Shown here in pieces: positions 22,355 through 56,553 of a stretch of DNA of 64,000 nucleotides. A model generated the notes under the pieces. The model searched no databases and was not told the DNA's origin. It worked only from the letters and a program-made list of their open reading frames with translations. The DNA is from a virus (taxonomy: Duplodnaviria; Caudoviricetes). How positions within the stretch are numbered: the stretch's first letter is position 1; the number at the start of each line of letters is the position of its first letter. The stretch spans positions 32,001 through 96,000 of IMG/VR virus record IMGVR_UViG_3300023060_000001; one strand, written 5' to 3'. A program made the translations under genes and the position numbers.

Positions 22355-22492
22355 ATATATTAATAAAGAGCACAAGGCTCTTGAGGAGGTCTATTATGAA
22401 AATAGTATTATGAAGATTAAAGAATGGATGTTCTTTATTAATATATCTCTGTTTATGTTGTAATTATAACACTTTGTTTAAGGGTGTGTCAA
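22355..22492 (-). promoter_or_regulatory. Sigma70 promoter plus a structured leader (terminator/antiterminator)
   Basis: TTGACA (22487-92), N18, TATAAT (22463-68). An 18-bp inverted repeat 22355-72/22429-46 overlaps the hairpin AAGAGCCUUGUGCUCUU. Confidence 0.6.
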
Positions 22493-22497
22493 ATGGA

Positions 22498-22567
22498 TGC
22501 CTTCGGTTGGAATTGAACCAACATATCCTCATTAAAAGTAAGTCGCTTACCAGTTAGCTACGAAGGC
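22498..22567 (-). tRNA. tRNA-Lys(UUU), atypical
   Basis: GCCTTCG/CGAAGGC acceptor stem; loop CT TTT AA; T-arm GTTGG TTCAATT CCAAC; 27:43 mismatch; followed by TCCA rather than an in-register CCA. Confidence 0.75.
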
Positions 22568-22568
22568 T

Positions 22569-22645
22569 TGGCACAAGAGGTAAGATTCGAACTTACAACC
22601 GTCTCCTTAGAAGGGAGATGAACTATCCAATTGTTCTACTCTTGC
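22569..22645 (-). tRNA. tRNA-Arg(UCU)
   Basis: Full cloverleaf; TCTCC CT TCT AA GGAGA; GTTCGAATC; encoded CCA. Confidence 0.93.
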
Positions 22646-22653
22646 TAAAAATA

Positions 22654-22744
22654 AATAACCCTATCCACAGTAGCGACTCTGTGTGCAAGTCGGGTTAACT
22701 CTTGCATAAAGACACCTGATGCCAATAAAGACAACGGCTCCTAG
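22654..22744 (-). ncRNA. Unidentified pseudoknotted RNA, copy 1
   Basis: Three hairpins plus loop UAACCC pairing with 3' GGGUUA; stems covary with copy 2. Confidence 0.7.
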
Positions 22745-22930
22745 CCTACATACCTAATATATTTTATATACACCGCACAGGTACATCCTTCTACTTCCAA
22801 GCTTTGCTTTTCAGCTTCTGCGGTAACGGTTTAATTCCAACTTACAATCAAGTTACCATACAATTGTACATCAGAGATAGGGCGGTAGGATAAGGAAAGA
22901 TATACAATCTTCCATACACCCCTTTTAAAA

Positions 22931-23019
22931 AATAACCCTGTTCGAGTAGCGACTCTCGTGCAGATCGGGTCAGCTTCTGCATAAAGACACCGTTAGCTAG
23001 TAAGCATAACAGTTCCTAA
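22931..23019 (-). ncRNA. Unidentified pseudoknotted RNA, copy 2
   Basis: Same conserved blocks (GGUGUCUUUAUGCA, ACCCGA, GAGUCGCUACU, AGGGUUAUU) with compensatory stem changes. Confidence 0.7.
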
Positions 23020-23081
23020 GGTATTCTCTATGTAACCAAATTCACTCCCTTTTATAGAAGTAACTACTTTCAGTTACATTA

Positions 23082-23435
23082 TTAATAACCTGAAAGTTGT
23101 TCTAATACTTTAGATTCAATCTTAGCTAAAATGCATTTAAGATTGTCAGATACATCACTTTTACCTGAGGATAATCTACTGTAGAGAATACCCAAGCCAT
23201 CAATGATATCTACGGTAAAGTGACTATCTTTTTCTAATAGGTCTAAATTAGCCTTAATCTTTCCCTCTATAGACTTTAGTACACCCACTGTATCATGTCT
23301 TAGATAGTTATCTTCTCGGAAAATCCTAACATGAAGCTTACCTAAAGTATCTAACTTACCTAAAATTTCCTGAACACTCATTAATCTCTCCTCCTGTGTT
23401 AATAAATTTAGGTGAAAAGTCAATTCCTGCTGCAC
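23082..23435 (-). CDS. Hypothetical protein
   Basis: RBS and an upstream TTGACA..TATACT promoter. Confidence 0.55.
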   Translation of the reverse strand: MQQELTFHLNLLTQEERLMSVQEILGKLDTLGKLHVRIFREDNYLRHDTVGVLKSIEGKIKANLDLLEKDSHFTVDIIDGLGILYSRLSSGKSDVSDNLKCILAKIESKVLEQLSGY

Positions 23436-23484
23436 AATTCACCTTATACGATTAAGTATACACTAATTTAAAATGTTGTCAACT

Positions 23485-24201
23485 TTATTGAAGTAAACTT
23501 TCAACAAATGCTTGTTCCTTTTCATCATTCCATTTCACATTAGCAAGTAACCATTGTACATAAGAAAGATCCTCTTGCACCAAATCAACCCACTTCTTAC
23601 CTTGGTCTTTGTACTTGTTGAAATCACACACTTCAATATTATTAACCTTGGGTGCAATTAGTGTGTACGCTTCATCAACAGTGAGATTATATTTTTCCAA
23701 CATGGCAACCAATACGTTAGCGGTCATTAACGCATCGGGCAGCGCAGAGTGTGCATCTCCAATAAACTCTTTACCAAAAGGGTCTTTGTAGCAACCTAGA
23801 TAATAGAATAAAGTGGTATTCTTATGATCACCAGATTCACCTTTTGGTATAAGTTTCCTTGCTAGTTTCAAAGTACATAACAATTTCACATCGTCAGGAA
23901 TAAACCCTTCTGGAAAGAACTTTTCATCAAATTGCATATTGTGGCAAACTACATACTTTGTTGATGGGTGAATTTTAAACTTAGGTAGCACTTTATCAAT
24001 AGTAGGTTTATCTGCCACCATTTCATTTGTGATGCCTGTGATACCCATTGCACCCCATGTAATATCCTTTTCTGGATTGATGTACGCACTTTTGCATGTG
24101 CTTTTGATAAGTTGATATTTCTTATCTAATCGACATTTACCAATTTGAGTTGCTTTTGGATCGCCTAATCCTGTTGCCTCAAAATCAAATACTTCTATCA
24201 T
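23485..24201 (-). CDS. DEDDh 3'-5' exonuclease (DnaQ/ExoX-like)
   Basis: FDFEATG, HNMQFD and AHSALPD motifs. Confidence 0.9.
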   Translation of the reverse strand: MIEVFDFEATGLGDPKATQIGKCRLDKKYQLIKSTCKSAYINPEKDITWGAMGITGITNEMVADKPTIDKVLPKFKIHPSTKYVVCHNMQFDEKFFPEGFIPDDVKLLCTLKLARKLIPKGESGDHKNTTLFYYLGCYKDPFGKEFIGDAHSALPDALMTANVLVAMLEKYNLTVDEAYTLIAPKVNNIEVCDFNKYKDQGKKWVDLVQEDLSYVQWLLANVKWNDEKEQAFVESLLQ

Positions 24202-28374: not shown

Positions 28375-28456
28375 ATATTCTCCTATTTAACTCTATTATA
28401 CCAAGAAACTTAGTATATGTCAACAAACATGGTATACCCACCCTGCAATACGTATA

Positions 28457-55064: not shown

Positions 55065-56331
55065 TTGAGTATAAACTATGTTACTAAAAGTAATGGTGAT
55101 GTTGTAGAGTTTTCTCCTGACAAATTGAACCGTATGGCAGAATGGGGTTCGACCATAGGGATTTGTTGGTCAGGGTTGGTTTTTGATGCATTACGTAAAG
55201 TAGAAGATAAATGTTCAACACAAGAATTACAACAAGCATTAATTGATGCGTGTTCCGATAAGAAAACCCCTGAACATTTAGATATGGCAGCAAGACTATA
55301 CTTAGGTTCTTTGTATAAAACTGTACACGGAGGTTTCGAAGAGAGACCCTCTTTACCAGACTTCTATTATAAAATGACTTCTGCTGGTGTATGGGAATAC
55401 ATGGATTATGATGACTCTGACTTAGATTATCTTGATAGTGTTTTGGATAATGATAAAGATTTGAACTATAAATTATCTACAGTAAAACAAATAAGTACAA
55501 AATATGCAAAGAAGCTAAATGGTGTAGTTTGTGAAACACCTCAATATGCTTTCATGGGTATTGCAATGAAGGTGATGGAAACTCAACCTGATGAGCGTAG
55601 ACTAGAAGATGTTGAGAAGTTGTATACATACTTAAGCGACCTAAAGATTAATATGCCGACACCTTTCTTAGCGGGTTTGAGAACTTCTTTTAAAGGTTTT
55701 GCTAGCTGTTGTGTAATCAAGTCAGAAGATACTGCAGACTCTATTGAGAATTTAGTACATGCTGCTTATAAGTTTACTAATGCGTCATCTGGTATTGGTT
55801 GTACGCTAACCACTCGTTCTGTTAAAGATCCTATAAGATCACAACCTGATAAACATACAGGAAAGATACCTTATTATCGATATTTACAAGGAGCGGTTAA
55901 ATCTACTAAGCAGGAAGTTAGAGGTGGTGGTGCGACAGTCCATTACACTGTACTTGACCCAGAAGTAGAAACCTTGTTAAGACTGAAGCATCCCACCACA
56001 ATAGAAGATAAGCGTATACGTGGGCTTGATTATTCAATGGGGGCAACAAAACTATTAGCTGAAAAAGCTTCTCGGAAAGAACCTTGGATGTTAGTGTCTT
56101 ACTATGATTCTCCTGAGTTATATGAAGCACATTTTAAAGGTTATGACGAGTTTAAGAAAGCTTATCAAGATTATGAAAAGAGTGAAGGTAAGAAGAAGTT
56201 TGTTAACTCTTTTGAAGTATTAAAACTATTCTTGACTCAACGTGGTGATACAGGTCGTAAATACCACACTTGGTTAGACGAAATGAATACACATACACCG
56301 TTTAAAGATACAATCTATAGTAGTAATCTGT
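55065..56331 (+). CDS. nrdA: Ribonucleotide reductase class Ia alpha subunit, exon 1
   Basis: ATP cone; PTP; ASCC; ends SSNL plus the first base of the Cys codon. Confidence 0.93.
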
Positions 56332-56553
56332 GAAATGACGCAGCCTTACGTGGGGACACGTATTGAAGAATTGGGTGAATTGACTGGAAAGCTAAGAGGT
56401 TTTACCTTATGCCAATCAGCAGCGAAGCTCTAAGGATAGAGAACGTTCAGAGACTAGTGGAGTTTGAGAACTTAATTACCACATTAGCGCCCAACACCTA
56501 GAACAGGTGATGATATAGTCCGATACTTGTAGAAATATAAGATTAACATTGAG
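56332..56553 (+). mobile_element. ORF-less group I intron (222 nt) in nrdA
   Basis: P1 CUGU/GCAG; P10 UGAC/GUCA; P GAAUUGACUGGAA; Q AAUCAGCAGC; R GUUCAGAGACUA; S AUGAUAUAGUCC; terminal G. Splicing restores SNLCQEI. Confidence 0.92.

Follow-up and report, generated by a model that had tools for sequence, protein, structure and literature searches.

What is made from a duplicated non-coding element that lies beside two tRNA genes of a marine phage, and what might it do? Small structured RNAs encoded beside tRNA genes are numerous in phages, and an explanation exists for few of them. We analyzed one such case in a 64,000-nt stretch of viral DNA (hereafter the window), which covers bases 32001-96000 of the 129,542-bp virus record IMGVR_UViG_3300023060_000001; direct terminal repeats are on record for this genome, and its closest named relative is Pseudoalteromonas phage J2-1 (genus Qingdaovirus). 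An initial annotation, made from the letters alone, had described two copies of a pseudoknotted RNA element on the tRNA strand and proposed them as a new class of phage non-coding RNA. Here, we located and modeled both copies, searched for relatives, and compared the resulting family with its genomic surroundings and with known RNAs.

Two copies of a pseudoknotted element on the minus strand

The element spans about 88 nt (about 120 nt in the divergent version of Pseudoalteromonas phage H101). From 5' to 3', an unpaired conserved CUUAGG leads into a first hairpin (Pa), whose sequence is free; the conserved linker (GG)UGUC connects it to a second hairpin of 6 bp (Pb), which is followed by a third hairpin (Pc) and an A-rich strand of 3-4 nt. 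The Pb loop pairs with the 3' end of the element, giving an H-type pseudoknot in whose long loop Pc is inserted. Both copies were found on the tRNA strand as described, with all named sequence blocks and stems present in each of them:

22654-22744, minus strand: element copy 1, J2-1 subtype (sequence, alignment, and covariance model)
22744-22739, minus strand: 5' end of copy 1, CUAGGA
22738-22715, minus strand: hairpin Pa of copy 1
22714-22707, minus strand: linker of copy 1, UGUCUUUA
22706-22701 with 22689-22684, minus strand: 5' and 3' strands of Pb of copy 1
22697-22692 with 22661-22656, minus strand: pseudoknot of copy 1, UAACCC (5' strand) with GGGUUA (3' strand)
22683-22666, minus strand: hairpin Pc of copy 1
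22665-22662, minus strand: GAUA of copy 1
22931-23020, minus strand: element copy 2, nearest to the subtype of genome L047 and phage PH357
23020-23014, minus strand: 5' end of copy 2, CUUAGGA
23013-22990, minus strand: Pa of copy 2
22989-22982, minus strand: linker of copy 2
22981-22976 with 22964-22959, minus strand: Pb of copy 2
22972-22967 with 22938-22933, minus strand: pseudoknot of copy 2, UGACCC with GGGUUA
22958-22943, minus strand: Pc of copy 2

Comparing the two copies revealed 82% column identity, and their flanks failed to align. A repeat search identified them as the sole long direct repeat of the region, 275 nt apart, and the core pattern and the covariance model, each independently, found exactly two copies in the entire 129,542-bp genome. 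Copy 2 is 87% identical to the element of L047 and 74% identical to copy 1; the two copies are thus of differing subtypes. As the initial annotation had noted, UGCAAG/CUUGCA in one copy corresponds to UGCAGA/UCUGCA in the other and CACAG/CUGUG to CGAG/CUCG, and the loop sequence UAACCC or UGACCC stands opposite a 3' GGGUUA. Its argument that G.U pairs fix the orientation also held, as UGACCC/GGGUUA and a U.G pair at the base of copy 2 Pa form on the minus strand only, in agreement with the orientation of the sigma70-type promoter and the tRNAs. The U-rich tails that it assigned to both copies fared less well: an A/U-rich stretch does follow copy 1, but the versions in H101 and in the 76-kb metagenome contig L207 show that such a tail is not a conserved part of the element.

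Comparison between phages supports all four helices

Pattern scans, blastn, and a covariance model together recovered 10 distinct sequences of the element. In a model-guided alignment of nine of them, pairing was maintained in 99.4% of cells and six pairs were altered on both sides, with at most 40% of cells paired in controls with a slid partner strand. None of 500 column shuffles of these nine sequences matched the observed paired share, the number of both-side-changed pairs or cells, or the covariation score. Pb occurs in three versions (UGCAAG/CUUGCA, UGCAGA/UCUGCA, and UGAGAG/CUCUCA) and Pc in four short ones (CACAG/CUGUG, CGAG/CUCG, CAAG/CUUG, and CACG/CGUG) as well as an 8-bp form in H101. 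Pa is represented by seven unrelated sequences, each of which forms a hairpin on a conserved C-G, C/U-G base; folding z-scores ranged from -1.7 to -3.9 for the nine that were folded, and Pa of H101 was judged by eye. The pseudoknot pairs form in all 10 sequences. Within the main group, changes in this helix are wobble-compatible only (UGACCC in copy 2 and L207, GGGUUG in PH357), whereas both strands are altered in H101, where UGGCUC/GAGCUA replaces UAACCC/GGGUUA with two both-side changes. Hence, the observation that the stems differ yet stay paired extends to compensatory changes in every stem, and the proposed pseudoknot gains covariation from H101 in addition to its pairing throughout the family.

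Conservation outside the helices is concentrated in CUUAGG, UGUC, an A and a G in the loop, and the A-rich strand, all of which are unpaired. The Pc loop, AGUCGCUA or UUUCGCUG, is likewise conserved across the main group. In our judgement, the geometry fits a classical H-type pseudoknot, with 6 bp per stem, a first loop of 2-3 nt, and 2 nt between the stems, and the long pseudoknot loop can be described as Pc plus 3-4 mostly A bases. Nested minimum-free-energy folding of the two copies was unremarkable (z = -0.76 and -0.88), and the case therefore rests on the comparison between sequences and not on thermodynamics. By this comparison, all four helices including the pseudoknot are supported, and the aligned members show a modular, strand-specific, pseudoknotted predicted RNA under strong constraint.

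The element defines a new but narrow RNA family

Building a covariance model and searching phage genomes with it, a check suggested by the initial annotation, yielded homologues with compensatory changes. The family comprises the 10 distinct sequences in about nine phage genomes or contigs, namely J2-1, PH357, H101, three IMG/VR genomes, and some metagenome contigs, and every named member is a Pseudoalteromonas phage. Element identity among members ranges from 65 to 97%, and each of five complete relatives searched over its whole length carries one copy. In J2-1, this single copy lies directly 5' of a tRNA-Arg gene; in PH357, it starts 5 nt past an open reading frame (ORF), with no tRNA nearby. 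In contig L003, the element abuts a different tRNA-Arg with only UUUUC in between, and contig L005 harbors one full copy, the spacer that separates the two copies of the window, and a truncated second copy. Further members are L047, a 142-kb IMG/VR genome whose element is identical in the Tara contigs L205 and L210, the contig L207, and L231, a 132-kb IMG/VR genome. The version in H101 (genus Shandongvirus) is clearly divergent.

Wider searches added little. A metagenome pattern requiring GGTGTCT, TGCA, ACCC, and TGCA gave no match. Loose patterns in IMG/VR returned about 220 loci, of which the covariance model passed only the known members plus L047, and the model found nothing further in about 1.9 Mb of loosely matching loci; a match in the 130-kb contig L254 was G+C-rich, due to chance, and not a member. 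When the upstream exonuclease gene was used as an anchor, a single-protein query reached close kin only and an alignment query reached 16 loci, among which L231 was the only new member; none of 12 more distant loci anchored in this way passed the covariance model. The core pattern had five matches in 185,579 bacterial and archaeal species genomes, all of them chance matches according to the covariance model, and blastn detected no match to the element in PLSDB plasmids. These searches indicate that the family is real but narrow, confined to one small clade of marine phages, and the designation as a new phage RNA class was therefore an overstatement.

The Rfam scan that had likewise been suggested detected no family match to either copy. 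With Rfam 15, only one group I intron and two tRNAs in the whole window reached the gathering threshold; at E<=10 with permissive filters, no match in 22400-23200 overlapped either copy, and scans of the relatives L047, L002 (PH357), and L207 were negative except for tRNAs. Relative to Rfam 15, the element thus represents a new RNA family, although its type is familiar, that of an orphan structured RNA in a tRNA or non-coding RNA cluster of a phage.

Several other assignments were considered and rejected. ARAGORN and RF00005 called only the flanking tRNAs, arguing against a tRNA or tRNA-like element. A conserved small ORF was dismissed as well: the frame that opens with the AUG within AUGCA ends in L207 already at codon 4, paired insertions shift it in copy 1 and L005, its end point varies among members, and H101 lacks the start, having AUUGAG at this position. 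An outer closing helix of CCUUAG with a downstream CUAAGG fits PH357 and partly copy 2 but not J2-1, and in copy 1 it would take up two bases at the 5' end of the tRNA. Reading UGUCUUUAUGCAA as boxA-like is not compatible with L047, L207, and H101, in which the UUUA part is missing, and in a split Shine-Dalgarno sequence (AGGA...GGUG) the GG would be paired within Pa. A partial likeness of copy 1 to a Cas12a repeat is lost in copy 2, which speaks against a CRISPR-repeat mimic. Likewise, there is neither a slippery site nor an ORF for a -1 frameshift signal, no reverse transcriptase gene is apparent among the neighboring ORFs for a retron RNA, a TnpB-like gene fragment that would suit an omega-RNA lies upstream in L005 only, and the gene-orientation switch expected near a replication origin is found near 29.4 kb, away from the element.

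The element is better conserved than the adjacent protein and independent of what follows it

A measure of constraint was provided by the gene immediately upstream, which is separated from the element by a predicted promoter:

23485-24201, minus strand: DEDD exonuclease gene (Pfam RNase_T)
23455-23482, minus strand: sigma70-type promoter P1, TTGACA-16-TATACT, 11/12 consensus, just past the exonuclease stop codon

The exonuclease, annotated as 'exodeoxyribonuclease X' in J2-1, PH357, and H101, is a syntenic anchor immediately upstream of P1 in all complete relatives. Its identity between phages is 39%, 35%, and 40%, and between phages with exonucleases 35-40% identical the element keeps about 70-87% nucleotide identity. 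Conservation so far above that of the neighboring protein points to a conserved molecular partner.

What lies downstream varies from phage to phage. A tRNA or tRNA-like gene adjoins only four of the 10 versions: tRNA-Arg in copy 1, J2-1, and L003, and an odd tRNA-like gene with a UCU loop in L207. Elsewhere, the element is followed by a ribosome-binding site and a 125-aa gene (L231), a 25-aa ORF and then tRNA-Gly (L047), the spacer of 185 nt (copy 2 and L005), a stretch of about 950 nt in which neither a gene nor a tRNA is annotated (PH357), or a fresh sigma70 promoter (H101). Constant features are the position after the post-exonuclease promoter, the orientation, and sharp conservation borders at CUUAGG and GGGUUA, beyond which sequences fail to align between subtypes. 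The suggestion of a discrete functional RNA processed from the tRNA transcript is consequently retained in its first part, a discrete strand-specific structured RNA, and not in its link to tRNAs.

Because the element's identity exceeds that of the exonuclease, its unpaired bases are kept while the stems drift, and its tRNA, ORF, or promoter context appears to be indifferent, we tentatively favor an autonomous RNA that would show its conserved unpaired bases to a conserved partner, a reading we consider plausible rather than probable. Such an RNA would be transcribed early from a strong sigma70-type promoter, and the rigid pseudoknot would display the conserved single-stranded bases to a partner that would most likely be a host protein or enzyme. 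Its release from the long transcript would be the task of host RNases, namely RNase P in front of a tRNA and, in the other cases, an endonuclease cutting in the A/U-rich tail. The second copy in the window phage would simply raise the dose. Identifying this partner could bring to light a step of phage takeover or counter-defence that is RNA-based and new, and the element is compact enough for structure work and occurs in three cultured Pseudoalteromonas phages (J2-1, PH357, and H101).

Several observations weigh against this reading. The 10 sequences correspond to about 6-7 independent lineages, and the pair counts are suggestive and below the level of an R-scape-grade test. Covariation in the pseudoknot depends on a single divergent sequence, that of H101, and the Pc loop is replaced in the same phage and hence is not a universal contact. 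All genomes but that of the window phage carry one full copy, the second copy of L005 being truncated, so that a dosage benefit is not general. Finally, a purely cis-acting role would fit the same positional data.

We regard as improbable a bolder set of roles, in which the element is a new kind of decoy in counter-defence or host takeover, sequestering an RNA-targeting enzyme or an RNA-binding regulator of the host in early infection, a new class of self-cleaving ribozyme, or an RNA whose pseudoknot pairs form between molecules to give dimers or rings. The phi29 pRNA assembles into rings or dimers through such intermolecular pairing, and the intermolecular variant stands as a conceivable arrangement because covariation looks the same whether the pairs form within one molecule or between two.

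A predicted sigma70-type transcription unit compatible with a possible cis-acting signal

The remaining features of the unit to which both copies belong are as follows:

23082-23381, minus strand: ORF of 99 aa located between P1 and copy 2; its ribosome-binding site reads GGAGG
22745-22930, minus strand: spacer of 185 nt between the copies
22569-22645, minus strand: tRNA-Arg(UCU)
22498-22567, minus strand: tRNA-Lys(UUU), the last gene before the next promoter
22463-22492, minus strand: consensus sigma70 promoter P2, TTGACA-18-TATAAT with TG, 12/12 consensus

Upstream of the two copies and the tRNAs, P1 is alone as a strong promoter-like site, and an equivalent promoter lies 5' of the element in every relative with known upstream sequence (J2-1, L003, L005, PH357, L047, L207, L231, and H101). 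P2 closes the transcription unit on its downstream side. Between the 3' strand of the copy 1 pseudoknot (end 22656) and tRNA-Arg (start 22645) lie ten A/U-rich bases, and since no promoter-like site was found there, copy 1 and tRNA-Arg are probably co-transcribed. The 99-aa ORF is absent from J2-1, L003, and L005 and belongs to no Pfam family. GC content is 0.41 in the RNA stretch and 0.32-0.36 in its flanks. Taken together, the element is predicted to be transcribed from a strong sigma70-type promoter within a stretch rich in tRNAs and other non-coding RNA after the exonuclease gene. Downstream of P2, a leader of about 100 nt (22355-22492, minus strand) ends, by eye, in a hairpin and U-run before a small Cys-rich gene (22302-22021); this layout recurs in J2-1, L003, L047, L207, PH357, and H101, and the terminator scan made no call there.

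This arrangement raises the alternative of a cis signal on the element's own transcript, either a processing/stability module, in which the pseudoknot would stop 3' exonucleases after an RNase P or RNase E cut just downstream, or a processive antiterminator like HK022 put or Bacillus EAR, which would modify RNA polymerase and carry transcription from P1 through downstream terminators. put and EAR are leader RNAs that follow a host-type promoter, act independently of the downstream gene, and occur once or twice per genome. The element shares their leader position and, as an antiterminator, would bind a highly conserved host partner, RNA polymerase; its location after P1 and before the by-eye hairpin and U-run in the next leader is compatible with such a role. 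It always lies inside a strong sigma70-type transcript, in one orientation and 95-600 nt from the promoter where the upstream sequence is known, at junctions between modules (ORF, leader, tRNA, or gene) and with an A/U-rich stretch after it. Its indifference to downstream content is what a general transcript-level signal would show, one copy per transcription unit would suffice, and the hairpin and U-run in the leader of the next promoter are seen in the window and its relatives, albeit without a call by the terminator scan.

On the other hand, the conserved unpaired bases exceed the needs of an exonuclease block. Many consensus sigma70 promoters on the same strand serve neighboring modules, leaving no evident need for long-range antitermination, and the element of H101 directly precedes a new promoter. 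Neither sequence nor structural likeness to put or EAR was found: put consists of two plain hairpins, to which the element bears no similarity in sequence or fold, and no Rfam family was matched, EAR being one of the families in that database. A cis signal is unlikely in our estimation, and the autonomous RNA is preferred.

No canonical terminator or conserved alternative pairing was found at the element

An intrinsic terminator at the element was rejected, as the scan was negative at both copies, and the same scan found no canonical terminator between P1 and the tRNAs. H101 has no U-run, and those of L207 and L003 are weak. Moreover, the downstream tRNAs and ORFs have no promoter-like site of their own, implying that polymerase must read through.

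These results bear on a ligand- or factor-sensing attenuator, in which, similar to a riboswitch, the pseudoknot beside the U-rich tract would set transcription or translation of the downstream gene. Several small pseudoknotted riboswitches are built in the way seen here, with an H-type pseudoknot, bases that do not vary in the loop and at the junctions, and a third strand rich in A. A U-rich tract lies directly 3' of the pseudoknot in most members of the family, and a ribosome-binding site follows within 10-25 nt in L231, L047, and copy 2. Nevertheless, the aptamer-like conserved pseudoknot is combined with unrelated downstream partners (tRNA, ORFs, or a promoter), unlike the gene associations of riboswitches, and no conserved alternative pairing that would mask a ribosome-binding site was detected. 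Together with the missing or weak U-tract in three members, the negative terminator scan at both copies, and the lack of an Rfam riboswitch match, this weighs against an attenuator, which we rate as very unlikely.

Comparison with ribozymes, antitoxins, and other phage RNAs

The HDV-like (hepatitis delta virus-like) theta ribozymes of gut phages are small, pseudoknotted, and located directly 3' of tRNA genes (PMC10879173), and the element resembles them as a small pseudoknotted phage RNA that can lie beside tRNA genes. In addition, the HDV-like order P1-P2-P1'-P4-J4/2-P2' resembles the order of Pb 5' strand, pseudoknot 5' strand, Pb 3' strand, Pc, A-rich strand, and pseudoknot 3' strand. Mapping by hand assigned counterparts to P1, P2, and P4; at the P3/L3 site, only GA or GC is present, and the nested double pseudoknot of the HDV-like fold is thus not formed. 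The J4/2 counterpart reads GAUA, AACA, AAUA, AUA, or GUCA, without the conserved catalytic C, and the G.U pair of the cleavage site, at the would-be base of P1, is absent. The element also lies 5' of tRNAs or away from them, whereas theta ribozymes lie 3' of tRNAs. A self-cleaving ribozyme of a different, new type, whose cut in the polycistronic RNA would fall either in the 3' tail or at or close to the 5' CUUAGG, would agree with the small pseudoknotted module, its invariant junction nucleotides, the phage tRNA and RNA-processing setting shared with theta ribozymes (PMC10879173), and the sharp end of conservation at CUUAGG. Given that no known ribozyme model matches the element and that the HDV-like features are lacking, we consider self-cleavage very improbable.

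The initial annotation had also raised the possibility of a mimic of a type III antitoxin or a decoy for anticodon nucleases, that is, a copy of a host RNA that would disarm defence. ToxI-type RNAs are tandem 34-36-nt units cut by an adjacent endoribonuclease toxin (PMC5086642), and repeat expansion of the pseudo-ToxI is described for escape mutants of phage TE (PMC3475682). Similar to ToxI and the pseudo-ToxI of phage TE, the element is phage-borne, has an H-type pseudoknot core with single-stranded tails (PMC5086642), CUUAGG and the A/U-rich 3' tail being unpaired in every model, and varies in copy number among close relatives (two in the window phage, one in J2-1). Furthermore, it adjoins tRNA-Lys(UUU) and tRNA-Arg(UCU). 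Unlike those of ToxI, however, its units measure about 88 nt, carry two extra hairpins, and are dispersed, with one or two per genome, instead of forming 34-36-nt repeats as in the ToxIN family (PMC5086642). Tandem Repeats Finder detected no array at the element, the two copies are separated and of different subtypes, and the other complete genomes have single units. In place of a ToxN-type gene after a terminator, a tRNA, an unrelated ORF, or a promoter follows, with no canonical terminator. Among the four neighboring ORFs scanned with Pfam, the sole match was RNase_T on the upstream exonuclease, and no toxin-type domain was found. No host original emerged from the 185,579 species genomes (core pattern) or the PLSDB plasmids (blastn), and there was no Rfam match of any kind. 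The likeness to antitoxins is one of fold only, and an antitoxin mimic is not supported; we rate a defence-disarming mimic of either type as highly unlikely.

Two further groups of phage RNAs deserve comparison. RNAC and RNAD of phage T4, the species 1 and 2 RNAs of its tRNA region, are encoded among the T4 tRNA genes and processed from a precursor common to both. Like the element, they are small RNAs encoded by a phage, and their function is reported as still unknown (PMC9697503). No sequence or structural relation to the element is detectable, no model-based comparison having been made; RNAC and RNAD are reported to be late, whereas the element follows a sigma70-type promoter and also occurs away from tRNAs. 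Conserved, covarying intergenic motifs in uncultivated phage genomes to which no function is assigned, as is the case here, are also contained in the IMG/VR catalogue of 8,495 candidate structured RNAs (PMC10690425).

Element copies as sites of exchange

In J2-1, the single copy has on its 5' side the sequence that flanks copy 2 there and on its 3' side the one that flanks copy 1, and in L005 the subtypes occur in swapped order with the second copy truncated. These junctions, together with the closer similarity of copy 2 to L047, indicate that the copies also serve as recombination points. In the extreme case, the element would have no RNA function and be a recombination linker at module boundaries or a DNA-level signal, for which these clear traces of exchange would speak. 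Yet, a linker or DNA site would not keep pairing through both-side changes in four helices, and neither G.U pairs on one strand only nor conservation far above the adjacent protein would be expected of it. A role without RNA function is accordingly highly unlikely, and none of the minor readings (riboswitch-like, ribozyme, decoy, or linker) is positively supported.

Additional modules in the window and its relatives

The spacer of 185 nt that separates copy 1 from copy 2 has a counterpart in L005 (L005:620-812, plus strand) with 93% conservation. Two compensatory changes fall in predicted stems, CCGCAG/CUGUGCGG to CCACAG/CUGUGUGG and AACUU/AAGUU to AAAUU/AAUUA, and a possible 14-aa mini-ORF, MEDCISFLILPPYL, has synonymous third-base changes. 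The spacer may be another RNA module or a micro-gene. Upstream of the promoter in L005 (L005:3-401, plus strand) lies, instead of the exonuclease gene, the C-terminal part of a TnpB/IS605 OrfB-like gene (CxxC...CxCG...RDxNAAxNI, by eye); an insertion sequence apparently entered the genome at this junction.

A second conserved RNA of about 125 nt was observed directly after the same promoter in PH357 (L002:2885-3005, minus strand), L047 (L047:120-245, plus strand), and L207 (L207:105-235, plus strand). It is seemingly multi-branched, its closing stem AAGAGUUG...CAACUCUU versus UAGGGUG...CACCUUA keeps pairing, and no Rfam match was obtained. In L207, the tRNA-like gene (L207:766-854, plus strand) directly follows the element and is itself followed by tRNA-Met. 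Its parts are an acceptor-like stem of 8 bp, a long arm that carries the loop CUUCUAA at its end (anticodon UCU), a T-arm with the sequence GAGGU-UCGAC-ACCUC, and GCCA at the 3' end; it lacks a D-arm, and ARAGORN and the Rfam tRNA model both left it uncalled. The leaders of L231 and H101 have in common a module upstream of the element (L231:4360-4430 and L246:2395-2460, both plus strand), in which GUGGUGCUU... is followed by a T-arm-like hairpin UUACG-UURGAUU-CGUAA and then GCCCUGAA; this module may be a tRNA-like remnant.

Between 12000 and 31000 of the window, near-perfect or perfect sigma70 promoters occur on the minus strand at 28423, 25613, 23482, 22492, 19614, and 16407, spaced along both replication-type and structural gene modules. 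Their distribution suggests that host RNA polymerase would drive much of the minus strand. Outside this region, the group I intron detected by Rfam lies at 56322-56542 on the plus strand (91 bits).

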